A stretch of DNA of 64,000 bases from Oscillospiraceae bacterium (lineage in GTDB: Bacteria; Bacillota; Clostridia; Oscillospirales; Oscillospiraceae). The stretch covers positions 24,953-88,952 of the forward strand of contig JAFPXK010000085.1 in the NCBI GenBank assembly GCA_017412585.1, in the 5' to 3' direction. How positions within the stretch are numbered: position 1 is the first letter of the stretch; each line of letters opens with the position of its first letter. Positions 9,306-64,000 of the stretch are shown one piece after another. The position numbers and the translations under genes are program-made. The notes under the pieces are model-generated. The model worked only from the letters and a program-made list of their open reading frames with translations, was not told the origin of the DNA and made no database searches.

Positions 9306-9470
9306 TTGTGTGTTGCACCTACCTTTCCTTTATGACGGACTCGCTGTCGGGGGCGTCCGGAGCCATGTCCGGCCCTTATGACCCATTCAAAGCGGCTTTC
9401 CTATTATAGCGATGGAACTGCCTTTTGTCAACAAATTTCCGGGATATTTTTTATCTATTTCGCTGAAATT

Positions 9471-9938
9471 TTACGCCTCGGGGTAGGCGAGCTGGGCCTC
9501 CGTCCACCGGGCGATAACGCCGGCATACCAGCGGCAGCATTCCCGGCCCAGGGCCACGTCCAGATTCACGTAGTTGCCGCACTCCTGGGGGCTTTTTCCG
9601 GGCATGGGGCCGTCGTAATCCACCGCCTGGGCGAACACGCGCTGCACCAGGGCGATGGCCTGGCCGTCGGTGAGACGGGCGCTGTCAAAGAGGAAATAGA
9701 AGCCCGTTTGGCAGCCCATGGGGCCGAAGTAGATGACGGCGTCCTTCTCCGGGCTGTTGCGCAGGAAGGTGGCGATGAGATGCTCCACCGAGTGCATCTG
9801 GGCGTTGGTCAGTAAATCGCCGGTATTGGGCTTCTTGAACCGCAGGTCAAAAGTGGTGACGCTGCCGTCCCGGCGGCTGAGGTACAGCCCCGGCACGAGG
9901 ACGTCGTGATTGACGGTAAAGCTGGCAATCCGCTCCAT
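9471..9938 (-). CDS. luxS: S-ribosylhomocysteine lyase LuxS
   Basis: Track ORF 9471..10121 trimmed to ATG 9938. Motifs HSVEH, PMGCQTG, QECGNY. Starts 3 nt after the pfs stop. Confidence 0.9.
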   Translation of the reverse strand: MERIASFTVNHDVLVPGLYLSRRDGSVTTFDLRFKKPNTGDLLTNAQMHSVEHLIATFLRNSPEKDAVIYFGPMGCQTGFYFLFDSARLTDGQAIALVQRVFAQAVDYDGPMPGKSPQECGNYVNLDVALGRECCRWYAGVIARWTEAQLAYPEA

Positions 9939-9940
9939 GA

Positions 9941-10612: not shown

Positions 10613-10732
10613 TGGATGTTCCTCCCGGTTTTCATATCAGCCACTATATTAAAATGGTGTCCTCTCAATGTCAAGTTGCAAATCGGACGTTCATCCGTTA
10701 AAATAGGAGAAAAGAGAGGGGAGGCGAGAGAC

Positions 10733-11908: not shown

Positions 11909-12009
11909 CAACCGAAAGTTGACAAATCAGCCGGGTGGGCAACCACAGGTTGCTTTACAATTTCCCCCATTTGTGCTACCATACCCCCGCATGAAAGGAG
12001 AGACGCACT

Positions 12010-12741
12010 ATGCTGAATGTATCCCATGTCACCAAGAATTACGGCAAGGTGCTGGCGGCAAACGACGTCAGCTTCACCCTGGACGACGGCAGCGTCACCG
12101 TGCTGCTGGGCCCCAACGGCGCCGGCAAGAGCACCATTATGAAGGCTATCATCGGCTTTTTGCGCTATAAGGGCGAGATCACCGTAGACGATATTCCCAA
12201 CAAATCCGTCCGGGCCCGGCGGATTCTGGGCTACATCCCGGAGTTGCCCTCCCTGTACCCCAATCTGACGGTGGCGGAGCACATGGAGTTTCTGGCCCGG
12301 GCCTACCGTCTGGAGAATTATAAGGGCCGCATTGACGCGCTGCTGGAGCGGTTCGAGCTGGCGGACAAGCGGAAAAAGTTCGGCGACGAGCTGAGCAAGG
12401 GCATGCAGCAGAAGCTGAACCTGTGCCTTGGCCTGCTGCCCCAGCCCCAGGTGCTGCTGCTGGACGAGCCCATGATCGGCCTGGACCCCCACGCCATCAA
12501 GGAGCTGAAGGCCGCCATCGAGGAGATGCGGCAGGAGGGGCGGACGCTGCTGGTCAGCACCCACATCATCGACAGCGTGGATATGCTGTGGGACCGCACC
12601 CTCATCATGCAGGGCGGCACCATCCGCGCCAACATGCAGCGCCATGAGCTGGAGGAGGACGGCCGCACCCTGGAGCAGCTCTTCTTCGACGTCACCGAGG
12701 GCGTGGAGCGCAGCCACATGACCGGGGAGGCGGCGGAATGA
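12010..12741 (+). CDS. ABC transporter ATP-binding protein
   Basis: Walker A GPNGAGKST, signature LSKGMQQK, Walker B LLLDEP. RBS AAAGGAGAG. Confidence 0.9.
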   Translation: MLNVSHVTKNYGKVLAANDVSFTLDDGSVTVLLGPNGAGKSTIMKAIIGFLRYKGEITVDDIPNKSVRARRILGYIPELPSLYPNLTVAEHMEFLARAYRLENYKGRIDALLERFELADKRKKFGDELSKGMQQKLNLCLGLLPQPQVLLLDEPMIGLDPHAIKELKAAIEEMRQEGRTLLVSTHIIDSVDMLWDRTLIMQGGTIRANMQRHELEEDGRTLEQLFFDVTEGVERSHMTGEAAE

Positions 12742-49299: not shown

Positions 49300-49375
49300 G
49301 CTTGTGTGGCTCAGTTGGTAGAGCAGCTCACTCGTAATGAGCAGGTCGCCGGTTCGAGTCCGGCCACAAGCTCCA
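49300..49375 (+). tRNA. tRNA-Thr (anticodon CGU), CCA encoded
   Basis: Cloverleaf folded by hand. Acceptor GCTTGTG/CACAAGC, D arm GCTC/GAGC, anticodon arm GCTCA-CTCGTAA-TGAGC, T arm GCCGG-TTCGAGT-CCGGC. Confidence 0.9.
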
Positions 49376-49522
49376 ATAGGAAAGGCCGCCCCAAAGGGGT
49401 GGCCTTTTCTATTGGAGCTTGTGGATGGACGAGAAGTTTATCCCCCCTTGTGGGGGAAGTCCGGCCACAAGCTCCATAAAAAAAGCACTGCTTACGCAGT
49501 GCTTTTTTTATGGAGCTTGTGG
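49364..49522. repeat. two long palindromes built on alternating copies of the tRNA 3'-end 12-mer CCACAAGCTCCA
   Basis: 12-mer at 49364 (+), 49413 (inverted), 49465 (+) and 49511 (inverted). The 19-nt tRNA 3' end AGTCCGGCCACAAGCTCCA recurs at 49458-49476. Terminator-like cores sit inside each palindrome. Confidence 0.85.
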
Positions 49523-49573
49523 CTTCACCATGATACCTATAACGCCGCCCCTGCCAATATCACCAAATTTCCG

Positions 49574-49602
49574 TTGCAATTTCCGCTAAACAGTAGTAAA
49601 AT
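49574..49602 (+). promoter_or_regulatory. putative sigma-A promoter of GH31-GPH operon
   Basis: TTGCAA-17 nt-TAAAAT. Confidence 0.45.
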
Positions 49603-49660
49603 TGCTGATGTGATAGAAGCGGACGGCTATGCCCTCCGCAAAAAAGGAGGGGTTAGCACC

Positions 49661-51640
49661 ATGGTTACCATCCATGCCGAGGGGCAGGAGTGGCGTCTGA
49701 GCCTGGACGGCGAGGCCGTCATCGTCCACACGCCGCGGCAGCCCTTCGCGGTGATGATTCACCGGGAGAAGCGCTACGAGGCCCAGCGTGGCACCGTCAA
49801 GACCACCGTGGTGGAGACGGAGCGGGTGGCCCTCTCGGACTATACCGCCGACGATGCCGGCGTCACCTTCCGGGGCGGCGGTCACGCCCTCCGCGTTGAC
49901 GTTGCCGATTGCGAGGGGGGCGCGGAGCTGCGCTTCACCGGGGAGGAGGGCTGGTCGTACCAGTTCACCCTCCGGGGCTATCCCGGCGAGGCGGTGTTTG
50001 GCGGCGGCGAGCAGTACCGCCAGACCAACCTCCGGGGCGAGCAGGTGGTGAACTTCGTCTCCGAGCACATCAAGGCCACCACCATTCTGGAAAAGGCCCT
50101 GCTGCCCCGGGGCCGCTACAAGGAGAAGCCCCACAGCAGCATCGGCAGCTATTCCCCCATGCCGGTGTTTACCACCGACCGCCGCCGTCTCTTCCTCTTC
50201 GACACCGATTGGGACGGCATCTCCGACTTCCGCACCGACGATTATACCTTCATCTTCGACCGCTGCCCCCGGGGCGCCGCGCTGCTCCGTGGCGAGAGCT
50301 ACGCCGACCTTGCCGGTATGCTCGCCCGCCGCATTCCCAACCGCCAGTATATCCCCGACTGGTGCCACGACGGCATGATCCTGGGCATCCAGGGCGGCAC
50401 CCGGGCCATTCTGGACAAGACCTTTGCCATGCTGGACGCCGGGGCCAAAATCTGCGGCGTGTGGAGCCAGGACTGGTCCGGCGAGAACCGCACCGTCATG
50501 GGCAAGCAGGTGTGGTGGAACTGGGAGGTGGACGAAAAGCTCTACCCCGACTTAAAGGGCGCTATCGCCAGGCTGAACGCCCGGGGCGTCCGCTTCCTGG
50601 CCTACATCAACCCCTATCTGGTAAAGGACAGCCGCCTCTACCGCTACTGCCGCCACAAGGGCTATCTCATCACCCGCACCGACGGCACCGTTTACCACAT
50701 CAAGTCCACCACCTTCGACGCCGGTATGCTGGACCTCACCAATCCCGAGGCGGTACATTACATAAAGGAAACGCTGATCAAGCGGAATATGCTGGATTTG
50801 GGTATCTCCGGCTGGATGGCGGACTTCGGCGAGTATTTGCCTGTGGACTGCGTCCTCCACGACGGCGACCCCGCCGTGCTCCATAACCGCTGGCCGGTGC
50901 TGTGGGCCAAGGTAAACCGGGAGGCCATTGAGGAATACGGCGCCAAGGACGTGATGTTCTTCACCCGCAGCGGGTATCTGGGCATCCAGACCTACGCCCC
51001 CATCATGTGGAACGGCGACCAGCATACCGACTATACCCGTGACTACGGCATGCCCTGCGTCATGCCCGCCAGCTTCTCCCTGGGCTTTTCCGGCGCGCCT
51101 ATGGTGCACAGCGACGTAGGCGGCTTCTTCTCCTTCGGCAAGCTGAAGCGGGACGATGAGCTGATGATCCGTTGGACGGAGATGAACACCTTTTCGCTGC
51201 TGATGCGCAGCCACGAGTCCATCCGCCCCTGGGCCAACAGCCAGTTCGACGCCCCCGGCGTCAAGGCTCACACCGTGGCCCTGACCCGCATCCACGCCGC
51301 CCTGAAGCCCTATATCGCCCACTGCGCCGCCCAGGCCGGGGAGGGCCTTCCCGCCATGCGGCCCGACTTCTGGTTCGCCGGCGATTACCGGGCCTCCCAT
51401 GACCCCTATTCCTATTTCCTGGGGGATGACCTCTACGTCTGCCCGGTGATTCGCCGGGGCGAGCACCGCCGCCAGGTCCATCTGCCGGAAGGGGAGTGGG
51501 TACATTTCTGGTCCGGCACGGAATATCCCGGCGGCACCGAGCACATGATTGCCGCCCCTCTGGGCAAGATCCCCGTTTTCTACCGCAAGAGCAGTCCCTT
51601 CGCACCGCTGTTCCGCGAGGCAGCGGGAATACATAAGTAA
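49661..51640 (+). CDS. GH31 glycosidase of the YihQ-like clade
   Basis: Trimmed to ATG 49661 (RBS AAGGAGG); the track ORF runs through the tRNA. GWMADFGEYLP (nucleophile D388) and MWNGDQ (D453). Collinear with E. coli YihQ as recalled. Confidence 0.85.
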   Translation: MVTIHAEGQEWRLSLDGEAVIVHTPRQPFAVMIHREKRYEAQRGTVKTTVVETERVALSDYTADDAGVTFRGGGHALRVDVADCEGGAELRFTGEEGWSYQFTLRGYPGEAVFGGGEQYRQTNLRGEQVVNFVSEHIKATTILEKALLPRGRYKEKPHSSIGSYSPMPVFTTDRRRLFLFDTDWDGISDFRTDDYTFIFDRCPRGAALLRGESYADLAGMLARRIPNRQYIPDWCHDGMILGIQGGTRAILDKTFAMLDAGAKICGVWSQDWSGENRTVMGKQVWWNWEVDEKLYPDLKGAIARLNARGVRFLAYINPYLVKDSRLYRYCRHKGYLITRTDGTVYHIKSTTFDAGMLDLTNPEAVHYIKETLIKRNMLDLGISGWMADFGEYLPVDCVLHDGDPAVLHNRWPVLWAKVNREAIEEYGAKDVMFFTRSGYLGIQTYAPIMWNGDQHTDYTRDYGMPCVMPASFSLGFSGAPMVHSDVGGFFSFGKLKRDDELMIRWTEMNTFSLLMRSHESIRPWANSQFDAPGVKAHTVALTRIHAALKPYIAHCAAQAGEGLPAMRPDFWFAGDYRASHDPYSYFLGDDLYVCPVIRRGEHRRQVHLPEGEWVHFWSGTEYPGGTEHMIAAPLGKIPVFYRKSSPFAPLFREAAGIHK

Positions 51641-51653
51641 GAGAGGTATCGAG

Positions 51654-53072
51654 ATGGAGAATTCCTACATTTCCCGCACCAGCGGCATCAAGGCCAGAGA
51701 TAAAATCGGCTACGCCATGGGCGACTTGGCCTCCTGCCTTGTGTTCGGCCTGACTCAGAGCGTGCTGAACAAGTACTATACCGACGTGCTGGAGCTGAGC
51801 GTCCTCAGCGTCATGGTCATGACCATCATCGCCCGCATCTGGGACGCCATCAACGATCCCCTGTGGGGCCGCATCATCGACGGCGCCCGGGTCCGTCCCG
51901 ACGGCCGCTACCGCCACTGGCTGAAGGTGTTCGCCGTGCCGGTGGCCCTGTCTGCCATCTTGATGTTCGTCAAGATTCCCGGCCTCAGCGGCAGCGGCTA
52001 CCTGGCCTACGCCTACGTGACCTATATCCTCTTTGGTATGCTCTATACCTGCATCAATATCCCCTACGGCTCCATGGCCCAGGTCATCACCTCCGACGAT
52101 AAGGAGCGTTCGTCCCTGTCGGTGTTCCGCTCCATCGGCTCCACCTTCGGCGCCATGCCCGCCATGGTGCTGGCCTCCGTGTGCTACGTTACCCTGGCCG
52201 ACGGCACCAAGCGGATGGATGACCGCCGGGTCCTCATCGGCGTGTGCGCCATTGCCGTGCTCAGCGTGGCCGCCTATTTCCTCAGCTACGCCTGGAGCCG
52301 TGAGCGTGTGGCTTCCCGGCCCACTCCCCGGCAGAAAGGCCAGACCATGCAGGTGGTTCGCACGCTGCTCAAGAGCCGCCCCTTCATGGCGGTGAGCCTG
52401 GCCAGTATGCTGTTCCTGGCGGCCCAGATGTTCGGCCAGGGCTACAACAGCTACCTGTTCCACCACTACTTCAACGCCCCCGGTCTCACCATGCTGCCCA
52501 CCGTGTTCCAGTACCTGCCGGTGGCGGTCATCATGTTCTTCGCCACCCGTCTGGGCAACAGGTTCGGCCGCCGGGAGGTCTGCTCCTACGGCGTGCTGCT
52601 GGCCGCCGTGTTCTACCTGGTGCTGTTTGTGCTGGCCCTGTTCGGCTTCACCAACGTGTGGCTGTACCTGCTGGCCTGCCTCATGAGCGGCATCGGCACC
52701 GCCTTCATCTTCCTGCTGGTGTGGGTGCTGGCCACCGACGCCATCGACTACAATAAGGTCACCTACGGCCTCAACGACGAGGCCACCAGCTACGCCTTTT
52801 ACAGCTTCATGCGCAAGCTGGGCCAGACCGTGGCCACCATCCTCATCAACGTGCCCCTGCTGCGCATCGGTTACAGCGGCAGCGAGCTGAAAACCGAGGG
52901 CCTCAGCGCCGCCGCCCTCAAGACCATGTACAACTTCTCCGTCATGATCCCCGCGGTGCTGTTCCTGCTGGTGTTCATCATCCTCCGCTTCGTCTATCCC
53001 CTCAGCAAGGCCCGTGTGGCCCAGCTCCAGGTGGAAAAGGAGAAGATGATGGAATCCCAGAGCGGCCAATAA
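51654..53072 (+). CDS. GPH-family (glycoside-pentoside-hexuronide) cation symporter
   Basis: Trimmed to ATG 51654. KIGYAMGDLASCLVF and RIWDAINDPLWGRIID motifs. 12 TM. Confidence 0.85.
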   Translation: MENSYISRTSGIKARDKIGYAMGDLASCLVFGLTQSVLNKYYTDVLELSVLSVMVMTIIARIWDAINDPLWGRIIDGARVRPDGRYRHWLKVFAVPVALSAILMFVKIPGLSGSGYLAYAYVTYILFGMLYTCINIPYGSMAQVITSDDKERSSLSVFRSIGSTFGAMPAMVLASVCYVTLADGTKRMDDRRVLIGVCAIAVLSVAAYFLSYAWSRERVASRPTPRQKGQTMQVVRTLLKSRPFMAVSLASMLFLAAQMFGQGYNSYLFHHYFNAPGLTMLPTVFQYLPVAVIMFFATRLGNRFGRREVCSYGVLLAAVFYLVLFVLALFGFTNVWLYLLACLMSGIGTAFIFLLVWVLATDAIDYNKVTYGLNDEATSYAFYSFMRKLGQTVATILINVPLLRIGYSGSELKTEGLSAAALKTMYNFSVMIPAVLFLLVFIILRFVYPLSKARVAQLQVEKEKMMESQSGQ

Positions 53073-53105
53073 TCGCCTTTGAAAAAGTAACCCATTTGAA
53101 AAAAG

Positions 53106-53131
53106 GAGCCGCGGCCCTCGGGCCGCGGCTC
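53106..53131. terminator. bidirectional hairpin terminator
   Basis: 12-bp GC stem gagccgcggccc / gggccgcggctc between convergent genes. Confidence 0.65.
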
Positions 53132-53152
53132 TTTCCTGCATTAAACTATGAA

Positions 53153-54493
53153 TCAATACCGATACACGGCAAAGCCAAACAGCTCCGCCAGCATTTCCAG
53201 CGCCCTGCCGTACCGGCCCTGGATCACCACGTAATGGGGCTCAAAGCCCGCCTTGACGCTGCGCTCCACAATGTCCCGGCTGTTGCCGTCGGTCCGCACC
53301 ACAATGGACGTGCCGGTGAACTGCTTGGGCTTGTCCAGGGCCTCACCCTCCAGGATGAAGAAGCGGAAGGAGCCGTCGGCCTCCCGGCCGATGCGGAACA
53401 CGGTGGCCTCCGGGAAGGCCTGGCAGCCGAAGTCCATAGCCGGGCCGATTTTCCGGTTGGGATGTACGCCCACGGTGGCGCCGGTATCCCGCCGGGCCAT
53501 GGAGCAGGCGGCCGCGCCGCAGTGCCAGAAGGTGATGGTGTTCTCCCCCTCGTCCAGAGAGACGGGGTCGCCGAAGAACACCGGCTTGCCCGACAGCGCC
53601 ATGCCCACCCACATGGACAGGGCCCCGTAGATGTCCGCCTCGCAGGCCGCTGCCACGCCCTCGTCGTTCAGGAGGGACAGCACCGTGCACACCGGCGTGC
53701 CAAAGGCGGTGAAGAAGTCGGGCCAGCACCGGGAGGCCAGGGCCTTAATGCCTTTTTCCTGCACATAGTCGGTGTAGGCCTTATAGAGCCGTGCGTGGTC
53801 CAGGGCGTTTTTCTCCGGGGTGGCCTCCAGGCCGCAGGTGGCCTTTCTTGTGCGCTCCAGCCATTCCCGGCACGCCTCGTCGCTGTACCCCTTGGCCCGG
53901 TCGATGAGCTCCCTTGCCTCTATGGCCTCCAGCTCCACGCCGAAGGTGTGCATCAGCTCGCTGTCCAGCGCCCGGCCGAAGCCGAAGCCCTGGGGCGTGT
54001 GGCCCACCGCCGCCATTTTCAGGGAGGTCATCTCTTTTTTGACCCGGGCCGCCGCCACGAAGGCGGCAATGTCCCGGCTCACGTTTTCCTCCTGCGGCCC
54101 ACCGAACACGTAGCCGAAGGGCCTGTTGCCGAAGGCGCGGAGGGTGTTGGCGGCGGAGTAGGCCCCGGTGAGGGAGTTGAGCCGCAGCCGCCCGCCGTCG
54201 ATGACAGGCTCCCGCAGCGTCCACAGCAGGATGGGGCAGTCAAAGCGCCGCAGCACCTCCGACATATAGGCGGCATTGGCAAAGATGAGATTCTGAAACA
54301 CGATCATGTCCGGGTGCAGAGGGGCGAGGAAATCGTGGAGGGCGTCCACCCCCAGCAGCATCTCCTCCGGGCACACGAAGTCGCCGCAGATGCCCTTCAG
54401 CAGGGCCCGGCTGCGGTCAAACTGGGCCTGGGCGCTCTCCATGTGAAAGGTGGGCACGCCCACGCCCACGTATACAGGTACGAAGTCGCTCAT
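53153..54493 (-). CDS. L-fucose/L-arabinose isomerase-family sugar isomerase
   Basis: 446 aa. FucI/AraA-like core with AACEADIYGA metal-site motif. RBS GGAGG. Confidence 0.7.
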   Translation of the reverse strand: MSDFVPVYVGVGVPTFHMESAQAQFDRSRALLKGICGDFVCPEEMLLGVDALHDFLAPLHPDMIVFQNLIFANAAYMSEVLRRFDCPILLWTLREPVIDGGRLRLNSLTGAYSAANTLRAFGNRPFGYVFGGPQEENVSRDIAAFVAAARVKKEMTSLKMAAVGHTPQGFGFGRALDSELMHTFGVELEAIEARELIDRAKGYSDEACREWLERTRKATCGLEATPEKNALDHARLYKAYTDYVQEKGIKALASRCWPDFFTAFGTPVCTVLSLLNDEGVAAACEADIYGALSMWVGMALSGKPVFFGDPVSLDEGENTITFWHCGAAACSMARRDTGATVGVHPNRKIGPAMDFGCQAFPEATVFRIGREADGSFRFFILEGEALDKPKQFTGTSIVVRTDGNSRDIVERSVKAGFEPHYVVIQGRYGRALEMLAELFGFAVYRY

Positions 54494-54579
54494 AGAGACC
54501 TCCTATTCCAATATGTGTCCTCATCATATCGCCCCGAGGCACATTTTGTCAACACATAGATGATACATCGCAATTAAGG

Positions 54580-54608
54580 TTGACAAAGACCGCGCCAGCG
54601 CCTAAACT
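54580..54608 (+). promoter_or_regulatory. putative sigma-A promoter of the transketolase operon
   Basis: TTGACA-17 nt-TAAACT. The TTG used as the ORF start in the track is the -35 hexamer. Confidence 0.45.
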
Positions 54609-54648
54609 CATGGTAGCCAATACTCTGTCAAAATGGAGGCGATTACCG

Positions 54649-55476
54649 TTGCAAGAGGATCTGAAGGCCCTGTGCCGCGACCTGCGCTGCGATATCATGA
54701 CCGCCATCGGTCATCTGGGCGTGGGCCACGCCGGCGGCAGCCTGTCCATCGTGGAACTGCTGGCGGTGCTGTATTTCAAGGAAATGCACATCGACCCCGC
54801 CCAGCCCGATATGCCGGGCCGTGACCGCTTTATCTGCTCCAAGGGCCACGCCGGCCCTGCGGTGTACGCGGCGCTGGCCCGCCGGGGCTACTTCCCCCGT
54901 GACCTGCTCATGACCCTGAACCAGGGCGGCACCAGCCTGCCCAGCCACTGCGATATGCTCCGCACCCCCGGCGTCGACATGACCACCGGCAGCCTGGGCC
55001 AGGGCTTTTCCTGCGCCGTAGGCGTGGCCCTGGGCTCCCGCCTGGCGGGGGACGGCGCCACCGTCTATACCGTCATCGGCGACGGTGAGAGCCAGGAGGG
55101 CCAGATCTGGGAGGCCGCCATGCTGGCAGGCAACAAGCACCTTGACAACCTGATTGCCTTTACAGACTACAATAAGCTCCAGATCGACGACCCTGTGGCC
55201 GTTATCAACGATCTTGCCCCCCTGGGCGCCAAATGGCGGGCCTTCGGCTGGCACGTCATTGAGGTGGAGGACGGCAACGATGTGGACCAGGTGGCCCAGG
55301 CGGTGGCCCTTGCCAAACGCAACCGGGGCTCCGGCAAGCCCACCATGGTCATCCTCCACACGGTGAAGGGCAGCGGCGTCAGCTTCATCATAGAGCGGGG
55401 CTGCGGCAACCACAACACCAAGGTGACGGAAGAGGAAGCCCGCCGTGCCGTGGCGGAGATCAGAGGGGAGGCGTAA
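54649..55476 (+). CDS. transketolase, N-terminal (TPP-binding) subunit
   Basis: TTG 54649 lies 9 nt after GGAGG; ATG 54610 is the alternative start. GHAGGSLSIVELL, GDGESQEGQIWEA. Confidence 0.85.
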   Translation: MQEDLKALCRDLRCDIMTAIGHLGVGHAGGSLSIVELLAVLYFKEMHIDPAQPDMPGRDRFICSKGHAGPAVYAALARRGYFPRDLLMTLNQGGTSLPSHCDMLRTPGVDMTTGSLGQGFSCAVGVALGSRLAGDGATVYTVIGDGESQEGQIWEAAMLAGNKHLDNLIAFTDYNKLQIDDPVAVINDLAPLGAKWRAFGWHVIEVEDGNDVDQVAQAVALAKRNRGSGKPTMVILHTVKGSGVSFIIERGCGNHNTKVTEEEARRAVAEIRGEA

Positions 55477-55479
55477 GGG

Positions 55480-56403
55480 ATGGAAATGCGCGCTGTCTAC
55501 GCCCAGTGCCTGGGCGAGCTGATGGAAAAGGACGAGAAAATCTGCCTCCTGGACGCCGACCTCTCCAAGGCCAGCGGCACACGGGGTCTCTATGACCGCT
55601 TCCCCGACAGAACGTTCAACTGCGGCATCGCCGAGCAGAACATGGCCTCCGTGGCCGCCGGCCTTGCCAGCTACGGCTTCAAGCCCTGGATCGAGAGCTT
55701 TGCCCCCTTTGCCACCCGCCGCATCTGCGATCAGATCACCCTGTCCATCGCCTACGCCGGGCGGAACGTGAAAATCGTTGGCACCGACCCCGGCATCACC
55801 GCCGAGCTCAACGGCGGCACCCACATGAGCTTTGAGGACATCTCCGTGCTTCGGGCCATTCCCGGCATGGTGATTTTCGAGCCGGTGGACGAGGTGCAGC
55901 TCCGCTCCGCCATGCCGGTGCTCAGCGAGTACCAGGGCTGCCTCTACCTGCGCCTGGCCCGCAAGGAGATGCCCCGGGTCTTTGATGATGATTACCATTT
56001 CGACCTGTTCCGGGCCGACACCCTCCGTGAGGGCGCCGACGTCACCGTCTTCACCTCCGGCTATCCCACCGCCGACGTGGTGGCCGTGGCGGAGGAGTTG
56101 TCCCGGGAGGGCCTTTCCTGCCAGGTGGTGAACGTACACACCATCAAGCCCATCGACAGGGAAACCGTGGTGGCCGCCGCCCGGAAAACCGGCGTGGTCG
56201 TCACGGTGGAGAATCACAATATCATCGGCGGCCTCCACTCCGCCGTACTGGAGGCCCTGGCCCACGAGCGCATCCCCGTCTACGCCGTGGGCGTCGAGGA
56301 CCGCTTCGGCGAGGTGGGCAAGCTGCCCTATCTCCGCCAGGCCATGGGCCTTACCCCCGAACACATCAAGGCGGTCATCAAAGAGGCCGCCGACGCCAAA
56401 TAA
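55480..56403 (+). CDS. transketolase, C-terminal (pyrimidine-binding) subunit
   Basis: FNCGIAEQNMASVAAGLA. 307 aa. Starts 3 nt after the N-terminal subunit. Confidence 0.9.
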   Translation: MEMRAVYAQCLGELMEKDEKICLLDADLSKASGTRGLYDRFPDRTFNCGIAEQNMASVAAGLASYGFKPWIESFAPFATRRICDQITLSIAYAGRNVKIVGTDPGITAELNGGTHMSFEDISVLRAIPGMVIFEPVDEVQLRSAMPVLSEYQGCLYLRLARKEMPRVFDDDYHFDLFRADTLREGADVTVFTSGYPTADVVAVAEELSREGLSCQVVNVHTIKPIDRETVVAAARKTGVVVTVENHNIIGGLHSAVLEALAHERIPVYAVGVEDRFGEVGKLPYLRQAMGLTPEHIKAVIKEAADAK

Positions 56404-56418
56404 CAGGAGGAGTTTACT

Positions 56419-56895
56419 ATGAAAATTGCCATCGGAAGCGATAAGTCCGGCTTTGCCGCCAAGGAGGCCGTCAAGGCCTATCTCACCGAGGCCGGCGTTC
56501 CCTTTGACGACCTGGGCACCGCCGACCTGGACCACGTCAATCCCTATTACGCCGTGGCCGATAAGGTGGCCCCCCTGGTGCAAAGCGGCGCCTACGACCG
56601 GGCCGTGCTGATCTGCGGCACCGGCGCGGGCATGTGCGTGGTGTCCAATAAGTACAAGGGCGTCTACGCCGTGGCCTGCGAGAGCGTCTATTCCGCCAAA
56701 ATGGCCCGGGCCATCAATAACGCCTCCGTCCTCTGCATGGGCGGCTGGATCGTGGGCCCCGAAATGGCGGTGGAGATGGTGAAAACCTTCCTGGCCACCG
56801 ACTGGTGCCAGGATCTGGAGGACTGGCGCCGGGAGAACATGAAAAAGTTCGCCGTCCAGGTCAGCGCCATTGAGGATAAGATCTATGATCGCTGA
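56419..56895 (+). CDS. RpiB/LacA/LacB-family sugar(-phosphate) isomerase
   Basis: MKIAIGSDKSGF, LICGTGAGMCV (catalytic Cys region). 158 aa. Confidence 0.85.
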   Translation: MKIAIGSDKSGFAAKEAVKAYLTEAGVPFDDLGTADLDHVNPYYAVADKVAPLVQSGAYDRAVLICGTGAGMCVVSNKYKGVYAVACESVYSAKMARAINNASVLCMGGWIVGPEMAVEMVKTFLATDWCQDLEDWRRENMKKFAVQVSAIEDKIYDR

Positions 56896-57982
56896 TTTTC
56901 TGTACCGCCAGCCGGTGGAGATTCACTTCGGCAGGGGCAAATTTGATGCATTACCCAATCTTTTGGCGGAAAAAGGCATCCGCCGGGCCCTCATTGTCTG
57001 CGGCAGCCACTTCGCCCCCAAGGCGGAGGCACTGGCGGCAGCGGGGCAGGGGATCTGCGGCGTGTATAGCCACGTCCAGGCCGACCCCCAGCTTTCGGAC
57101 GTGAAGGCCGCGGCAGAGCAGGCCCGCCGTCTGGCGGCCGACGCCATCATCGGCGTGGGCGGCGGCAGCGCCATGGACAGCGCCAAGTTTGCCGCCGCCA
57201 TCGTGGACGATTTCGACAGCGCCGACGCCTATTTTGAGGGTAAGCGTCCCTTCCCGGCCCGCCGTCTGCCGGTCATCGCCGTGCCCACCACCGCCGGCAC
57301 CGGCAGTGAGGTCACCCAGGTTTCCGTCATCAGCAGGGGGGAGGAGAAGCGCACCATCAACGACCCCGCCTTTATGCCCGCCCTGGCCCTGGTGGACCCC
57401 GCCCTGGGGGACACGGTGCCGCCCCACGTGGTGATGTGTACCGGCCTGGACGCCCTGGCCCACGCCCTGGAGGGCTATTGGAGCCGCAACCACCAGCCCA
57501 TTTCCGACCTGATGGCCGTAGAGGCCGTTCGCCGTATCTGGGCCAATCTGGAACGGGCCTGGCGTGACCGCGGCGATACGGAGGCTTGCGATGAGATGGC
57601 CTTTGCCGCGCTGCTGGGGGGCCTGTCCTTCGCCCTGCCCAAGACGGCGGGCTGCCACGCCTGCAGTTATCCCCTCTGCGAGCATTTCCACATCAGCCAC
57701 GGCGAGGCCTGCGCCTTTACCCTGGACAGCTTCGTCCTCGCCAATGCCGATGACCGCCTTGCCTGCCTCTGCCGCGCCGCCGGTGTCGGTACAGTGGAGG
57801 ATTTGGCACGCCGCATCCGGGAGTGGAAGGCTATGGCGGGCCTTCGCACCCGCCTCCGTGACCTGGGGGACACCTCGCCCCGCCAGCTTGCCCGGGAGGC
57901 AGCGGCCCACCCGCTGATGGGCAATAACCCTGTGCCCATGGACGAGGACGCCCTTTGCGCCATGTTCACCGCGCTGCAATAA
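56885..57982 (+). CDS. iron-containing (group III) alcohol dehydrogenase
   Basis: ATG 56885 overlaps the rpiB-like stop. GGGSAMDSAKF, PTTAGTGSEV, and His ligands in LDALAHALE and HACSYPL...HISHGEA. Confidence 0.85.
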   Translation: MIADFLYRQPVEIHFGRGKFDALPNLLAEKGIRRALIVCGSHFAPKAEALAAAGQGICGVYSHVQADPQLSDVKAAAEQARRLAADAIIGVGGGSAMDSAKFAAAIVDDFDSADAYFEGKRPFPARRLPVIAVPTTAGTGSEVTQVSVISRGEEKRTINDPAFMPALALVDPALGDTVPPHVVMCTGLDALAHALEGYWSRNHQPISDLMAVEAVRRIWANLERAWRDRGDTEACDEMAFAALLGGLSFALPKTAGCHACSYPLCEHFHISHGEACAFTLDSFVLANADDRLACLCRAAGVGTVEDLARRIREWKAMAGLRTRLRDLGDTSPRQLAREAAAHPLMGNNPVPMDEDALCAMFTALQ

Positions 57983-58068: not shown

Positions 58069-58097
58069 TTGACATTTTCAAATAGTTAGCTTATACT
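58069..58097 (+). promoter_or_regulatory. putative sigma-A promoter
   Basis: TTGACA-17 nt-TATACT upstream of the DUF2325 gene. Confidence 0.55.
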
Positions 58098-58177: not shown

Positions 58178-58459
58178 ATGAGCGTGGTCATTGTCGGCGG
58201 CAACGAGTGTATGGAGCGGCAGTACAAGGACCTGTGCCGCCAGTTTGACTGCCGCGCCAAGGTGTACACCAAGGCCGAGGGTATGGCGGGCAAGGTGGGC
58301 AATCCCGACCTGCTGGTGCTGTTCACCGGCACCATGTCCCACAAGATGCTGCAAGGCGCCCTCAGCGGCGTGAAGGGGAAGGACACCGTCATCGCCCGCT
58401 CCCATTCCAGCTCCATGTCCGCCCTGCGCACCATTCTTATGACCCACGCCGTCCGTTGA
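58178..58459 (+). CDS. DUF2325-like small protein
   Basis: Trimmed to ATG 58178 (RBS AGGAGG). MSVVIVGGNECMERQYKDLC...LVLFTGTMSHKM pattern. Confidence 0.65.
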   Translation: MSVVIVGGNECMERQYKDLCRQFDCRAKVYTKAEGMAGKVGNPDLLVLFTGTMSHKMLQGALSGVKGKDTVIARSHSSSMSALRTILMTHAVR

Positions 58460-58656
58460 TTTCGCCATTCTCATTCTTTTCCATAGCGGGGCGCAGCGCC
58501 TGTGTTGCGTCCCGCCCTCCTTTTGCCTATCGCTGCCCGTGCCGCGCCGCTGCGCCGCCGGGCGGCTTTTTTTGCGAAAAAAGTAAAATCCCCATACCAT
58601 TTTTCTGCGGTATATACTATAATGAGAATCAGAATGATAACGAGGGAGGACTTGCC

Positions 58657-60996
58657 ATGATCACCGTTGAGAATCGCCTCTTTATTCTGGAGACCGAGCG
58701 CACCGCCTACTGCTTCCGTGCCCGGGAGGACGGCGTACTGGAGCACCTCTACTACGGCGCCCGTCTGGGCCGGAGGGAGGACTATGAGGCCCTGGCCCCG
58801 GTCTACCGCCATCAGCCCGGCAACGCCGTGGTGCTGGAAAGCGGCGCCGCCCTGGAGCGGATGGACCAGGAGGTGGGCACTGCCGGCTGGGGCGACAGCC
58901 GGGAGTGCGCCGTAGACGTCATTTTCCCCGACGGCGACAGCAGCGCCTCCTTCCGCTACTTCCACACCATGCGCCCGGAGCTGGACACCCCCGCTGGCCT
59001 GCCCGCCGCGGCAGGGGAGGGGGAGACGCTGCAGGTGGTGTGTAAGGACCAGCGCCACGAGGTGTATCTCAATCTCTACTATACCGTTTTCCCCGAGACG
59101 GACGCCATCGTCCGCTGGGCCCGCCTCAGCAACGATACCGACGGCGCCGTCACCATCCGCCGCCTTATGAGCCAGCAGATCGACCTTCCCCGGGGGGACT
59201 ATCTCCTCCACACCTTCCGGGGCGCCTGGGCCCGGGAGATGGATCATGTCACCGCTCCCATTTCCGGCCGCCAGACCTGGGGCGCCAGGGTGGGGGTCAG
59301 CTCCAGCCGGTGCAACCCCTTCGCCATGGTGTCCGCCGCCGACGCCACCGAGCGCTTCGGCGCCGTGTGGGGCCTCAACCTTTTGTACAGCGGCAATCAT
59401 ATTGGCGTGGTGGAGCGGGGGCCCTACGGCGGCGTCCGCGTCATCCAGGGCATGGACGGCCTTACCTGGCATCTTGCTGCCGGCGAGAGCTTCGACACGC
59501 CCCAGGCTGTCAGCGTGTTCTCCGTCTCCGGCTTCGGCGGCATGAGCGTGCAGATGCACCGCTTCGTCCGCCGCCACATCGTTCGCGGCGAGTGGCAGTA
59601 CCGGGAGCGCCCCGTGCTGGTGAACAGCTGGGAGGCCATGTATTTCAAAGTAGACCGCCGCAAGCTGCTGGCCCTGGGCAAGGAGGCCAAGGCCCTGGGC
59701 GCGGAGCTGCTGGTGCTGGATGACGGCTGGTTCCGGGGCCGCAAGGACGACACCGCCGCCCTGGGCGACTGGCAGGAGGACACGGGCAAGCTGCCCGGCG
59801 GCCTGGGCGGCCTGTGCAAGGACGTACAGGCCCTGGGCCTGGACTTCGGCCTGTGGATGGAGCCGGAGATGGTCAGCGAGAAGAGCGACCTGTTCCGCGA
59901 CCATCCCGACTGGATTCTGGGCCACGCCGACCAGGCTCTGGGCCGCAACCAGTATGTGCTGGATCTGAGCCGGGCCGATGTGTGCGACTATGTGTACCAG
60001 GCCGTGGCCGATGTGCTGTCCTCCGCCGACATCAGCTATATCAAGTGGGACATGAACCGCATCTTCTCCGATACCTGGTCCTCCACCGCCGCTCCGGAGC
60101 GCCAGGGCGAGGTGTGCCACCGCTACGTTCTGGGCCTTTACAGCATCCTCCGCCGCTTAAACGCCGCCTTCCCCCACGTGCTGTTCGAGGCCTGCGCCAG
60201 CGGCGGCAACCGCACCGACCTGGGCATGCTCTGCTTTATGCCCCAGGTCTGGGCCAGCGACAATACCGACGTCCTGTGCCGCGTGGGCATTCAGAACGGC
60301 TACAGCTACGGCTACCCCCAGTCCGTCCTGGGCTGCCACGTCTCCGCCTCCCCCAACCACCAGACCCTGCGCCGCTCTCCGCTGGACAGCCGCCTCCAGG
60401 TGGCCTGCTTCGGCCTGCTGGGCTTCGAGCTGGATTTGGGCGACCTGCCCAAGGGCCAGCGTGAGTCCTTAAAGCAGCAGGTGGCGTTCTATAAGGCCCA
60501 CCGCCGCACGTTGCAATTCGGCCAGCTCTATCGTGGCAATGTCAGCGATAACGAGACCGTCTGGACCGCCGCCGCCACCGATGGCAGCGAGGCCCTCACC
60601 CTCCATTTCTGCGCCCTTAACGGCCCCAACGAGCCGATGCGCCGGGTCCGCTGCGGCGGCCTCACCCCCGACGCCCTTTACCGCGTCACCAATCTGCCCG
60701 TCACCCCCCATCTCCACGACTTCGGCTCCCTGGTAAACATGATGTCCCCCGTGCCCATCAAGCCCGACTCCCTCACCGCCCAACTGGCCGAGCACTTTGT
60801 CAAGCTGGAGCCGGACAGCATCGACCTCACCGCCTCCGGCCTGGGTCTGATGCGCCAGGGCTTCGTCCCCGTGCAGCACTTCTCCGGCACCGGCTACGAC
60901 GGCGGCACCGCCGTCATGCGCGACTTCGACAGCCGCCTCTATCTGCTGGAGCGGCAGGAGGAGCCCCAAGCCGCCCCCGCTGCGGAAGAAAAGTAA
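58657..60996 (+). CDS. GH36 alpha-galactosidase
   Basis: Trimmed to ATG 58657 (RBS GAGGGAGG). YIKWDMNR (nucleophile region), CASGGNR, WASDNTD (acid/base region). Confidence 0.9.
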   Translation: MITVENRLFILETERTAYCFRAREDGVLEHLYYGARLGRREDYEALAPVYRHQPGNAVVLESGAALERMDQEVGTAGWGDSRECAVDVIFPDGDSSASFRYFHTMRPELDTPAGLPAAAGEGETLQVVCKDQRHEVYLNLYYTVFPETDAIVRWARLSNDTDGAVTIRRLMSQQIDLPRGDYLLHTFRGAWAREMDHVTAPISGRQTWGARVGVSSSRCNPFAMVSAADATERFGAVWGLNLLYSGNHIGVVERGPYGGVRVIQGMDGLTWHLAAGESFDTPQAVSVFSVSGFGGMSVQMHRFVRRHIVRGEWQYRERPVLVNSWEAMYFKVDRRKLLALGKEAKALGAELLVLDDGWFRGRKDDTAALGDWQEDTGKLPGGLGGLCKDVQALGLDFGLWMEPEMVSEKSDLFRDHPDWILGHADQALGRNQYVLDLSRADVCDYVYQAVADVLSSADISYIKWDMNRIFSDTWSSTAAPERQGEVCHRYVLGLYSILRRLNAAFPHVLFEACASGGNRTDLGMLCFMPQVWASDNTDVLCRVGIQNGYSYGYPQSVLGCHVSASPNHQTLRRSPLDSRLQVACFGLLGFELDLGDLPKGQRESLKQQVAFYKAHRRTLQFGQLYRGNVSDNETVWTAAATDGSEALTLHFCALNGPNEPMRRVRCGGLTPDALYRVTNLPVTPHLHDFGSLVNMMSPVPIKPDSLTAQLAEHFVKLEPDSIDLTASGLGLMRQGFVPVQHFSGTGYDGGTAVMRDFDSRLYLLERQEEPQAAPAAEEK

Positions 60997-61031: not shown

Positions 61032-61052
61032 TTCATGCCTAATATGATGGAA

Positions 61053-61913
61053 TTACTCCTCAAAATGCACGTGGGTAAAGATGTGATCCTGGCAGAAGCA
61101 GTGATACCCGGCGCACTTGCTGCAATAGCGGAACTGGAGGTCGGGGTAGTCCGCGTCCGTCCGTCCGCACACGGCGCATTTGTGGGTGTAGCCCCGCTGC
61201 TGCTGTTGCTGCTTCACCGCTTTTTTGAACTGCACCACCTGGGGGCTGCGGCGGTAGGCCGCCTTCTCCTTCAGGTACGTCACCTCCGGCCAGATGAACA
61301 CGGCGAAGTTCAGCAGCGCCACAACGGGCAGCACCACGCCGCTCCAAAGCCCCAGGCGGATGGAGTTGATGATGTCGAAGCCGAACAGCGCCGCGTCCAG
61401 ATAGGCCAGCCACTTCATCTTTACCGGAATCACAAAAAACAGCATCACCTGTGTGTCGGGGAAGAGGCAGGCAAAAGCCAGGAACATGGACAGGTTCACG
61501 TAGGTGGCCCCGGCCACGTAGAAGTGGGCGCCCTGCACCAGCCCCGCCAGCACGGCGCCGATGAGGGTGGCCACCATGCCGCCGAAGTAGTACAGGTTAA
61601 ACCTGGCCGTGCCCCATTTGTTCTCCAGCACCGAGCCGATCCAGTAGTAAAAATACAGGCTGATAGCCAGGAAGATGATGCTGCCCTCCTGAGGCACCAG
61701 CACAAAGGTGATTATCCGCCAGATCTCACCCTTCAGCACCGCCGGCCAGTAAAAGGTGAGGAAGCTGAGGGCGTTGGCGTCATTGGCCTGGGTGAACATC
61801 ATCAGCACGTACACGATCACGTTGCCGATAACCACATAGCGCATCAGATTGGGAATGCCGAACCGGGGATGGCGTGCGCAGAACCGATCCACCGCCCCAT
61901 AAATCGCTTTCAA
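61053..61913 (-). CDS. rhomboid-like polytopic membrane protein with C-terminal Cys-rich zinc-ribbon
   Basis: GEIWRIITFVLVP (the rhomboid WR motif) and ~6 TM. C-terminal CAVCG...CSKC...HCFCQDH. Confidence 0.65.
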   Translation of the reverse strand: MKAIYGAVDRFCARHPRFGIPNLMRYVVIGNVIVYVLMMFTQANDANALSFLTFYWPAVLKGEIWRIITFVLVPQEGSIIFLAISLYFYYWIGSVLENKWGTARFNLYYFGGMVATLIGAVLAGLVQGAHFYVAGATYVNLSMFLAFACLFPDTQVMLFFVIPVKMKWLAYLDAALFGFDIINSIRLGLWSGVVLPVVALLNFAVFIWPEVTYLKEKAAYRRSPQVVQFKKAVKQQQQQRGYTHKCAVCGRTDADYPDLQFRYCSKCAGYHCFCQDHIFTHVHFEE

Positions 61914-62128
61914 AGGGGAGACCCCTCCTTTTCATACACGTTGCTATGGATGATACCACACTATTTGCCAAAAGTCATGTCATTTTTATAAACATTCCCC
62001 CGGGGCGACAGGGCAGGGGAGGCCCACTTTGAAAACAAGTTGAAAATCTGGCGGAAATCCGCTATAATCACTCCGAACACCCGCTCGGAGGCCCTCGCCG
62101 TCCGGGAAAAATAGGAGGAGGTCTTTAC

Positions 62129-64000
62129 ATGAAGAGGATAACGGGCAAGAAACTGCTGGGCATTCTCCTGGCGCTGGTCCTGGTCATAGGCCTGGTGCCG
62201 TGCTCCGGCATGACGGCCAACGCGGACGATCTGATTCGTATCGGCTCGGCGGACGAGCTGAAAAAGATCGGCCAGGACACCGCCTATCCGCTGTCCGGCA
62301 ACTACCGACTGACGGCAGACGTCTCCATGGACACCATGATTGCCGGGGAATTCACAGGCGTGTTTGACGGCTACGGTCATACCGTCACCCTGAGCATCAG
62401 CCATACTGATGAATGGAATACGGGCCTGTTCGAAAACGTGTCCGGCACCGTCCGGAATCTGATCACCGACGGTTCCGTTACCGGCGTTAAGGGTAACGTG
62501 GGCGCCGTTGCCGCCTATGGCAGCGGCACCTTCAGCCGCTGCTGGAACCGGGCCTCCGTCAGCGGCTTCGGTGCCCAGGGCGCCTCGGGCATCGTGGGCT
62601 TTGGCGGCTCGGCCACAGACTGCCTGAATACCGGCGTCATCAGCGGCAATATCCGGGTGGGCGGCATCACCTGCTCCAACGCGGACGTGACGGCCACCGT
62701 AACGCGCTGCTTCAGCTCGGAGTGCTCCAATTTCGAAGCGACCGCTCATGACAATGGCGCCTTTTATATCGTAGGCGGCGATTCCCCCAATATGCAGGTT
62801 ACTGACTGCTATTTTGCCGGCAACGTGGATCATGCCGGCACCAATAAGGGCAAGGGTACGAAGCTGTCCGGCGCGGACGTGGCCAATCCCGAAAAATACG
62901 CCAACTGGGATTTCACCAATACCTGGATGATGAAGGACGGCAGCCCCAGGCTGAGAATGCCTGTGGAAGCCCCTGTGTTCACCCCTGATGGGGGTAAGCT
63001 CACCGCCGCCCAGAGCGTGACCCTGTCCTGCGCCACCAAAGATGCCGTGATGTATTACACCACCGACGGCACCAAGCCCACCACCGGCAGCACCGTGTAT
63101 ACCTCTGCCATTACGCTGACCGCAACCGCCACCGTTAAGGCCATCGCGGTGAAGGATGGGGTCAGCAGCGAGGTTGCCTCCGCCACGTTCACCCTCCCGG
63201 CGCCCGAGCCCTTTGAGGCCGACAATACGGTGGACGTCTCCGGCACGGCGACGGCGGACGGCGTTAAGGTGGAATCCCTCAGCAACGAGCAAATCATTGA
63301 GATTAAAAAAATGCCCATAGATCAGTCTGTCAACCTGCGCCTTTCAGGTAATCCCAGCCAGGTTGAGATTAAACCCGCGGCAATCGAGCAGTTGGATTTG
63401 GCCCGGGACAGACGGGTGAGCGTGTGGATGCGTAAGGAGAGCGGCGGTACAGAGGCCTGGTACAGCCTGGATTCGTCCGTCAATATGCTGCGCAACGGCG
63501 TAACGATGAAGATCGATCCCATCGATAATCCCACCAGCCCCGACAAACTGACGCTGCAGCAGGCAAACGCCCTCGCCCAAAATCTGGATACTGCCAATGA
63601 TTATCGGGTATTCAATATTGAGGCGTCGTTTCCCACCACAGACGGCAGGAAGCTGGAAGAGCCGGTCAATTTCAATGTCGGCGACAGTGCGATAAATAGC
63701 TGGCCGTCTGCCAACGTTGGCGCCTACTATATGGATGATGAGGGCGCGTTTGAGAAGGTAGGGCTGTCATTCAAAAAAACGAGTACGCTTACCGGCAGCG
63801 AAGGAAGCATCATGACCTCCCTGAAGCTGGATCATTTCTCCGTCTACGTGCTGGTCAATAAGGGCCAGACCGCCAGCGTCACCGTGGCACCGGAGGCAAG
63901 GACGCTGACCTATACCGGCTTTGCCCACAGCCTGGTAACGGCGGGTGAGGCCGAGGGCGGCACCATGTACTATGCCCTTACCACCACCGCCGCAGCCCCC
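62129..64000 (+). CDS. large secreted surface protein, 5' partial (GLUG-like repeats + chitobiase/hexosaminidase-C-like domain)
   Basis: Not in the track because it is open-ended. Own translation from ATG 62129 (RBS AGGAGGAGG) shows 624 codons without a stop. Signal peptide MKRITGKKLLGILLALVLVIGLVP. The VFTPDGG...MYYTTDGTKPT...TVKAIAVKDG module is typical of the CHB_HEX_C-like fold. Confidence 0.8.
   Translation, partial: MKRITGKKLLGILLALVLVIGLVPCSGMTANADDLIRIGSADELKKIGQDTAYPLSGNYRLTADVSMDTMIAGEFTGVFDGYGHTVTLSISHTDEWNTGLFENVSGTVRNLITDGSVTGVKGNVGAVAAYGSGTFSRCWNRASVSGFGAQGASGIVGFGGSATDCLNTGVISGNIRVGGITCSNADVTATVTRCFSSECSNFEATAHDNGAFYIVGGDSPNMQVTDCYFAGNVDHAGTNKGKGTKLSGADVANPEKYANWDFTNTWMMKDGSPRLRMPVEAPVFTPDGGKLTAAQSVTLSCATKDAVMYYTTDGTKPTTGSTVYTSAITLTATATVKAIAVKDGVSSEVASATFTLPAPEPFEADNTVDVSGTATADGVKVESLSNEQIIEIKKMPIDQSVNLRLSGNPSQVEIKPAAIEQLDLARDRRVSVWMRKESGGTEAWYSLDSSVNMLRNGVTMKIDPIDNPTSPDKLTLQQANALAQNLDTANDYRVFNIEASFPTTDGRKLEEPVNFNVGDSAINSWPSANVGAYYMDDEGAFEKVGLSFKKTSTLTGSEGSIMTSLKLDHFSVYVLVNKGQTASVTVAPEARTLTYTGFAHSLVTAGEAEGGTMYYALTTTAAAP

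Follow-up and report, generated by a model that had tools for sequence, protein, structure and literature searches.

Which sugar does a catabolic gene cluster break down when it encodes a glycosidase, a symporter, two isomerases, a split transketolase, and an alcohol dehydrogenase (ADH), and no sugar kinase? The question is raised by a 64,000-nucleotide stretch of Oscillospiraceae bacterium DNA (contig JAFPXK010000085.1, positions 24,953 to 88,952), here called the window. Pfam and NCBIfam profile searches, used for domain annotation of the window genes, and gene orientation confirmed the layout that an earlier note had read from the sequence: a gene pair for a GH31 glycosidase and a GPH-family symporter converges on an isomerase gene, which diverges from an operon encoding transketolase N- and C-terminal subunits, an RpiB-like protein, and a Fe-ADH-type dehydrogenase (Table 1). 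The operon junctions, described as overlapping or nearly abutting, measure 3 nt, 15 nt, and an 11-nt overlap, and no kinase domain was found between 49.3 and 61 kb, in agreement with the proposed absence of a sugar kinase. The earlier note likened the cluster to the sulfo-transketolase (sulfo-TK) pathway, and gene content, an Ala/Asp transketolase signature, and a TauF-like ADH bear this out. Two options had been left, a transketolase route for a different nonphosphorylated sugar, which was preferred, and a divergent sulfo-TK variant; our evidence favors the second. We consider it likely that the cluster is a sulfo-TK set of a rumen Oscillospiraceae bacterium, with sulfoquinovose as its predicted substrate and isethionate as its predicted product. 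We read it as one more instance of an already described pathway and not as the means to degrade a new sugar.

In herbivore guts, sulfoquinovose, which comes from plant thylakoid lipids, is a major source of sulfur and carbon, and the isethionate formed from it by fermentation nourishes sulfide-producing bacteria. Sequence and gene context suggest that the GPH symporter would import a sulfoquinovosyl glycoside (e.g., sulfoquinovosyl glycerol), that the YihQ-family GH31 enzyme would free sulfoquinovose from it, and that a SftI/SqvD-type isomerase would convert sulfoquinovose to 6-deoxy-6-sulfofructose. The split transketolase would transfer C1-C2 of this ketose to glyceraldehyde 3-phosphate, yielding xylulose 5-phosphate and 4-deoxy-4-sulfoerythrose; the latter would be isomerized by the RpiB-like enzyme to sulfoerythrulose. 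From a second transketolase round, another xylulose 5-phosphate and sulfoacetaldehyde would arise, and the TauF/SqwF-like dehydrogenase would turn sulfoacetaldehyde into isethionate, which would then be excreted. With the sulfonate taking the role of the phosphate, such a route needs no kinase.

We compared the cluster with related loci from a one-genome-per-species scan. Twenty-three loci encode GH31 proteins 59 to 97% identical to that of the window and have, like it, Gln, Trp, and Phe at the positions of Arg301, Trp304, and Tyr508 of Escherichia coli YihQ (residue numbering taken from the E. coli K-12 gene); after a gap follow 57 loci at ≤46% identity, 51 of them with Gln-Trp-Tyr and 6 with the canonical Arg-Trp-Tyr. 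Neighboring genes were clustered and representatives annotated with Pfam; since the open reading frame (ORF) caller gave antisense shadow ORFs in high-GC loci, counts were made by tblastn instead. The 51 Gln-Trp-Tyr loci (among those we labeled L030 to L086) include a TAL_FSA transaldolase in 36 cases, a sulfolactaldehyde-reductase-like gene in 40, TauE in 31, DUF4867 in 36, a ROK regulator in 31, and an isomerase in 42. By gene content, this is the sulfo-transaldolase set already known from gut Firmicutes.

Most isomerases of the sulfo-transaldolase loci are 55 to 65% identical to the window isomerase. Since the isomerase acts on the free sugar, this likeness argues for the same sugar, and we regard it as the strongest argument that the substrate would be sulfoquinovose in both cluster types. 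The sole NCBIfam match of the window protein is to the sulfoquinovose isomerase SftI (386 bits). All six conserved basic residues of the sulfo-transaldolase-locus isomerases are present in it, and comparison of 10 isomerases from Gln-Trp-Phe loci with 41 from other loci found every conserved Arg and His kept, with one position separating the groups; identity between the groups (50%) was higher than within the comparison set (47%). No solved structure matching the isomerase by sequence was found. A second Fucose_iso-like isomerase type, ∼25% identical to the window's, occupies the isomerase position in L084 (8597-9901), L046 (4207-5460), L032, L054, and others; L084 is a compact TauE-containing sulfo-TK operon with this distant type.

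The best solved relative of the transketolase C-terminal subunit is the split transketolase 6YAJ/6YAK. Alignment to the human and C. hydrogenoformans transketolases placed Arg4, Ala31, Asp103, and Arg161 at the phosphate site, with Ala31 and Asp103 replacing the phosphate-binding Ser and His of ordinary transketolases. The reported motif of sulfofructose transketolases is Arg-Ala-Phe-Asp-Arg, versus Arg-Ser-Phe-His-Arg in ordinary ones (PMC11659671), and the window subunit reads as the former, not the latter. The Ala/Asp signature is found in all but two transketolase subunits of the Gln-Trp-Phe loci, in L084 and L051, and in each of the best 120 homologues of the L084 subunit. Two sampled contexts of these homologues (L091 and L092) hold TauE, RpiB-like, Fe-ADH, and ROK genes, and one of the two, from Clostridium omnivorum, additionally holds a canonical GH31, DUF4867, and a transaldolase. 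The N-terminal subunit is 52 to 60% identical to the subunits in the TauE clusters L084, L091, and L092. A kinship with pentose-phosphate enzymes, which the earlier note had named as counterevidence, was thus not seen: signature and relatives both point to sulfonate clusters. The L092 module (2664-13754, Anaerobacterium chartisolvens) has transketolase, RpiB-like, Fe-ADH, TauE, and ROK genes, is preceded by a NMT1/TauA-like ABC importer and a Zn-ADH, and lacks GH31 and sulfoquinovose isomerase genes; its substrate may be a smaller (C4?) sulfonate.

The RpiB-like gene lies directly after the transketolase genes, as a SqwI gene would by sequence. Its product has the motifs GSDKSG, GGWI, and LEDWR in common with those of L084, L091, and L092, keeps the catalytic-Cys motif CGTG, and has Lys where the SDH motif has its conserved His. 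Sulfoerythrose isomerase activity of SqwI is only proposed, even for the archetype. The transketolase, RpiB-like, and ADH genes might also be ordinary pentose-phosphate and fermentation genes that lie beside a glycoside operon by chance, and generic NCBIfam transketolase and RpiB models do match the transketolase and RpiB-like proteins, below or near their cut-offs. Replacement of the phosphate-binding Ser/His by Ala/Asp, the Lys in the SDH motif, and recurrence of the arrangement in 19 loci with different flanks make such a coincidence hardly credible.

As for the ADH, its best solved relative is BkTauF (6JKO; 244.7 bits, 39% identity), the next match scoring 134.7 bits. BkTauF is a characterized sulfoacetaldehyde reductase that oxidizes isethionate, not ethanol, ethylene glycol, or ethanolamine (PMC6616044). 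Its residues Asp192, Gln196/His, Phe252, Thr257, His261, Phe265/Tyr, and His275 are kept in the window ADH, and the active-site residues are also kept in 11 other distinct ADH genes of the Gln-Trp-Phe cluster type. The symporter scores above the cut-off of TIGR00792 (268.8 bits) and is 25 to 27% identical to E. coli YihP and YihO, and ∼40 to 44% identical to most symporters of the sulfo-transaldolase loci; its gene follows the GH31 gene in 25 of the 32 fetched Gln-Trp-Phe loci.

Co-conservation of the two operons, a check proposed in the earlier note, was found in most places where it could be assessed. Gln-Trp-Phe GH31 genes lie at 29 unique loci, 22 of which have enough flank; in 19 of these 22, spread over Oscillospiraceae, Lachnospiraceae, and other Clostridia, they adjoin the isomerase gene and the transketolase operon, in which the two transketolase subunits are accompanied in most cases by the RpiB-like gene. 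The genes flanking the block vary from locus to locus, which argues that GH31, isomerase, and transketolase genes move as a unit; the cluster arrangement is not chance. By tblastn, none of the Gln-Trp-Phe loci has a transaldolase, a sulfolactaldehyde-reductase-like gene, or TauE. Fuller clusters (L011, L024, and L088) have an EamA/DMT permease, a ROK regulator, and DUF4867 (SftX) after the ADH gene, and the permease occurs in 11 fetched loci of this type (8 without duplicates). Between symporter and isomerase, a PNP_UDP_1 gene (nucleoside phosphorylase/nucleosidase superfamily) is present in L005 (13488-14237), L088 (13705-14454), and L010.

In three loci, a canonical Arg-Trp-Tyr GH31 gene is divergently adjacent to the Gln-Trp-Phe gene (L011, 7130-9136; L017, 7169-9154; L029, 4043-6094; all on the minus strand). 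This neighbor ties the Gln-Trp-Phe block to sulfoquinovose, and the pairing suggests that the two GH31 types are not redundant. Mixed GH31 pairs occur in L043 and L051, too.

It could be that only the transketolase operon belongs to the sulfoquinovose pathway and that the GH31-symporter pair forms a module of its own, directed at some other alpha-glycoside, with sulfoquinovose entering by another route or being freed by another enzyme or organism. The pair does occur without the transketolase operon in L009, L013, and L090 (10 kb of flank on each side); a canonical GH31 is already present in L011, L017, and L029; there are sulfo-TK-encoding Caproiciproducens genomes without any known sulfoquinovosidase (PMC13219744); and a promoter and terminator scan of the window assigned the pair and the operon to separate transcription units. 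Against this, the pair adjoins the transketolase operon in the 19 loci across Clostridia, was never observed next to a different catabolic module, is the pathway's only glycosidase-importer pair in most loci, including the window, and encodes a GH31 that passes the YihQ family model. We therefore think it unlikely that the pair serves another glycoside, and keep it in the sulfoquinovose pathway.

The related loci also share a regulatory site. A 21-bp palindrome, TTRRTTAA-N5-TTAAYYAA, has 76 matches in 1.5 Mb of fetched loci, compared with 0.07 in shuffled sequence. In Gln-Trp-Phe loci it follows the −10 element of the transketolase operon and precedes the ribosome-binding site (L011, 15026; L015, 2261; L016, 13516; L088, 15910), and in ∼30 sulfo-transaldolase loci it lies ∼80 to 140 nt upstream of the GH31 match. 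The palindrome is probably the operator of the ROK regulator. Since palindrome and ROK gene occur in both cluster types, transketolase and sulfo-transaldolase clusters appear to share a regulator family and an operator.

What is left to account for is the glycosidase. The window GH31 scores 597.7 bits on the NCBIfam YihQ model PRK10426 (cut-off, 553), is 35.5% identical to E. coli YihQ, and keeps Gln288 and both catalytic Asp residues (nucleophile and acid/base; Asp405 and Asp472 in E. coli). The earlier note was right that it departs from the sulfonate triad: Arg301 is Gln, Tyr508 is Phe, and Trp304 is kept, so that two of the three triad residues are changed, and the sulfonate motif Gln288-Arg301-Trp304-Tyr508 reads Gln, Gln, Trp, Phe. 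Further pocket changes relative to YihQ are Asn474 to His, Thr509 to Phe, Arg294 to Asn, and Met303 to Trp. Specific to the Gln-Trp-Phe subclade are the change of Tyr508-Thr509 to Phe-Phe, those at 294 and 303, and ∼17 further fixed changes, of which many fall in the N-terminal domain. The best 120 database homologues (68 to 94% identity) all have the Gln and the Phe, and those that are traceable or named are metagenome-assembled genomes of Clostridia, mostly from ruminant gut. Phe at 508 is confined to the subclade and a few other lineages, while Gln at 301 is common to the sulfo-transaldolase GH31 genes. With Gln301 being usual in Firmicutes sulfoquinovose clusters, the loss of Arg301 is no argument for a different sugar, and the case for such a sugar, which had rested on the missing triad, is weak. 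Judging from these genes, the Arg-Trp-Tyr triad is unsafe as a test for sulfoquinovosidases in Firmicutes; a GH31 sulfoquinovosidase without the whole motif has already been published (PMC12780224). The Gln-Trp-Phe GH31 subclade is the one unusual part of the cluster; its enzymes probably still handle a sulfonate, which they would recognize in a new way. Candidate contacts to the sulfonate are an Arg at YihQ position 295, His474, and Arg residues specific to the subclade at YihQ positions 137 and 246.

Most Gln301 GH31 genes from sulfo-transaldolase clusters carry His at 474. We considered His474 as a general substitute for Arg301 and rejected it: the correlation holds for the fetched Firmicutes loci but fails in 150 broad representatives, where Leu and Met are common at this position. 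Among these 150 representatives, a sample biased toward relatives of the query, Gln-Trp-Tyr types outnumber Arg-Trp-Tyr types.

The changed pocket bears on the idea of a transketolase route for a nonsulfonated sugar, such as alpha-linked 6-deoxyglucose (quinovose), degraded to acetaldehyde and ethanol, or a sugar with a different C6 substituent. In favor of this idea, the C6 pocket has lost Arg301 and Arg294 and is more hydrophobic (Phe-Phe, Met303 to Trp), TauE is absent from all Gln-Trp-Phe loci, and the three loci with a canonical paralogue alongside hint at distinct roles. The other proteins of the cluster speak against it: the isomerase is indistinguishable from the sulfo-transaldolase ones, the transketolase has the sulfofructose-transketolase signature, and the ADH is TauF-like, BkTauF having no activity on ethanol, ethylene glycol, or ethanolamine. 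Gln-Trp-Phe loci have DUF4867, the ROK regulator, and the operator in common with sulfoquinovose clusters, Gln301 is usual in sulfo-transaldolase clusters, and export by an EamA permease would suit a polar end product, not ethanol. On balance, a different sugar seems quite improbable. We are similarly doubtful that the Gln-Trp-Phe GH31 has a specificity of its own, for the alpha-glycoside of a glucose analogue with a nonsulfonate C6 (6-deoxyglucose) or a larger C6 group (a 6-O-sulfate ester) that would be degraded kinase-free; if true, transketolase-type glycolysis would have a second natural substrate. The Gln-Trp-Phe-Phe pocket would represent either a new sulfonate-binding mode or a new specificity. 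No hint of apiose metabolism was seen in the neighborhood of the cluster.

Several observations weigh against assigning the window cluster to sulfoquinovose. The isomerase score of 386 bits falls short of the SftI cut-off of 700 bits, and the ADH is only 38 to 41% identical to ADHs of TauE-containing clusters. None of the expected accessory genes (TauE-type exporter, EamA permease, ROK regulator, or DUF4867) is present in the 64-kb window, nor is the palindromic operator, which was sought with up to 3 mismatches; for the two transcription units of the window, co-regulation is suggested by position only. Gln in place of Arg301 and Phe-Phe at 508-509 are invariant in the GH31 subclade, and we know of no assayed enzyme of this type. 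The three loci with a solitary GH31-symporter pair count here as well. Finally, the Clostridium sp. MSTE9 cluster was compared by its published description and not by sequence, with L084, L091, and L092 as stand-ins; none of the 120 listed homologues of the L084 transketolase subunit was named MSTE9. These points lower our confidence in the sulfo-TK assignment, which we still regard as the best explanation.

Table 1. Features of the cluster and its downstream neighbor (window positions)
Feature	Position	Strand	Basis
Promoter-like site TTGCAA-17-TAAAAT upstream of GH31	49574..49602	+	Consensus scan, 9/12, 59 nt before ATG 49661; consensus match only
YihQ-family GH31, Gln-Trp-Phe subclade, presumed sulfoquinovosidase	49661..51640	+	Pfam GH31 domains, PRK10426
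GPH-family (MFS_2) cation symporter, presumed sulfoquinovosyl glycoside importer	51654..53072	+	TIGR00792
Hairpin terminator	53106..53131	-	11-bp stem with 10 G-C pairs, then minus-strand T-run
SftI/SqvD-type aldose-ketose isomerase (Fucose_iso_C)	53153..54493	-	NCBIfam SftI match
Back-to-back promoter-like sites	54523..54608	both	Consensus matches only
Transketolase N-terminal (thiamine diphosphate-binding) subunit, SqwG-like	54649..55476	+	Pfam Transketolase_N
Transketolase C-terminal subunit, SqwH-like	55480..56403	+	Transket_pyr and Transketolase_C
RpiB/LacAB-family isomerase, SqwI-like (presumed sulfoerythrose to sulfoerythrulose)	56419..56895	+	Pfam LacAB_rpiB (PF02502)
Metal-dependent Fe-ADH, TauF/SqwF-like, presumed sulfoacetaldehyde reductase	56885..57982	+	Nearest solved relative BkTauF
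GH36 alpha-galactosidase, own promoter-like site 58069-58097	58456..60996	+	Pfam Melibiase, GH36 N- and C-terminal domains

Gene starts lie later than ORF starts for GH31 (ATG 49661), the symporter (ATG 51654), the transketolase N-terminal subunit (TTG 54649), and the ADH (ATG 56885); that of GH31 is fixed by the ribosome-binding site AAGGAGG and by homologue lengths. The terminator separates the converging symporter and isomerase genes, and a 155-bp region separates the diverging isomerase and transketolase genes. This region holds a promoter-like site for the isomerase on the minus strand (TTGACA-18-TATGAT, 54523-54552; 11/12 consensus) and one for the transketolase operon on the plus strand (TTGACA-17-TAAACT, 54580-54608; 10/12).

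The window has a G+C content of ∼62%, and its cluster proteins are 94 to 98% identical to those of L007, from an Oscillospiraceae genome of a goat-reticulum metagenome. Upstream of the cluster are housekeeping genes (for PolA, a GNAT acetyltransferase, and TsaD) and, directly before it, a tRNA-Thr(CGT) gene (49300-49375). Two long hairpins follow this tRNA gene (within 49300-49523), one with 40-nt arms that are 85% complementary and one with 28-nt arms that are 100% complementary; both are made of copies of the tRNA-Thr 3′ end (AGTCCGGCCACAAGCTCCA) and may serve as tandem terminators or be remnants of an integration event at the tRNA gene. The alpha-galactosidase that the earlier note placed after the cluster is a GH36 by its domains. 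It lies outside the conserved cluster: of the loci compared, only the window and L007, a 97%-identical relative, have it alongside. One may speculate from its position that the head groups of thylakoid lipids (digalactosyl and sulfoquinovosyl glycerol) are used together. The DUF2325 gene reported next to it could not be recovered: ORFs in 61035-63597 gave no Pfam match, save a weak Rhomboid match on the minus strand.

Among the solved sulfoquinovosidases, E. coli YihQ and others (5AED, 5OHT, 5OHY, and 6PNR) fall in the same GH31 subfamily as the window protein (E-values, 1e-119 to 1e-124). BkTauF from Bifidobacterium kashiwanohense agrees with the window ADH in metal ligands, Phe252, Thr257, and Phe265/Tyr; it differs in function, working in taurine nitrogen assimilation, and in Gln196, which is His in the window, a variant reported among BkTauF homologues (PMC6616044).

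The sulfo-transaldolase clusters of gut Firmicutes (sft/sqv; Frommeyer et al. 2020, PMC7491151) have the same isomerase type and a related GPH symporter, and share DUF4867, the ROK regulator, and the 21-bp operator with the Gln-Trp-Phe relatives of the window. Their GH31 resembles the window's in Gln at 301 and His at 474, but keeps Tyr508. Unlike the window cluster, they split sulfofructose by a transaldolase to C3 products and have genes for a sulfolactaldehyde reductase and TauE.

Liu et al. 2021 defined the sulfo-TK pathway using Clostridium sp. MSTE9 (as summarized in PMC9594981 and PMC12890257). As described there, the MSTE9 cluster is kinase-less like the window's and has a YihQ-family GH31, a SqvD/SftI isomerase, SqwGH, SqwI, SqwF, and the Ala/Asp signature; it also has a TauE-type exporter (SqwE), DUF4867, and an ABC importer, whereas the window has neither of the first two and a GPH symporter instead of the third. 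Compared with the MSTE9-like clusters L084, L091, and L092, the window proteins are 52 to 61% (transketolase), 53 to 54% (RpiB-like), and 38 to 41% (ADH) identical, and the window GH31 is of the Gln-Trp-Phe type. The sulfo-TK pathway has also been shown in Faecalicatena, where a sulfoquinovose-induced cluster includes a DMT permease as candidate exporter, the family found in the fuller Gln-Trp-Phe clusters. C. symbiosum and E. gilvus are also known as fermenters of sulfoquinovose.

The closest setting is the rumen itself. Cow rumen microcosms turn sulfoquinovose into isethionate (Krasenbrink et al. 2026, PMC13219744), and “Candidatus Limivicinus” (Oscillospiraceae), 35.5% of whose 313 genomes have the sulfo-TK pathway, encodes sqwGHI genes that are transcribed during this conversion (PMC13219744). 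Rumen yihQ genes form several distinct clades, and some Limivicinus species have two yihQ copies (PMC13219744). The forward primer of that survey matches the window GH31 perfectly, while the reverse primer YIHQ1526Rb (encoding DIGGYT) has 5/17 mismatches to it at 51113-51129; the Gln-Trp-Phe subclade may therefore have gone unsampled in the published survey, and yihQ amplicon surveys may undercount rumen sulfoquinovose degraders. The enriched Limivicinus amplicon (97 residues) implies a primer-motif spacing of 104 residues, versus 101 in every Gln-Trp-Phe gene, and this length argues against the yihQ of Limivicinus sp900317375 being of the Gln-Trp-Phe type. The two Limivicinus yihQ copies do fit the paired canonical and Gln-Trp-Phe GH31 genes of L011, L017, and L029. 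In habitat, family, and pathway genes (yihQ, sftI, sqwGH, sqwI, and sqwF), “Ca. Limivicinus” is like the organism of the window, whose cluster would add one rumen Oscillospiraceae carrier of the described pathway.

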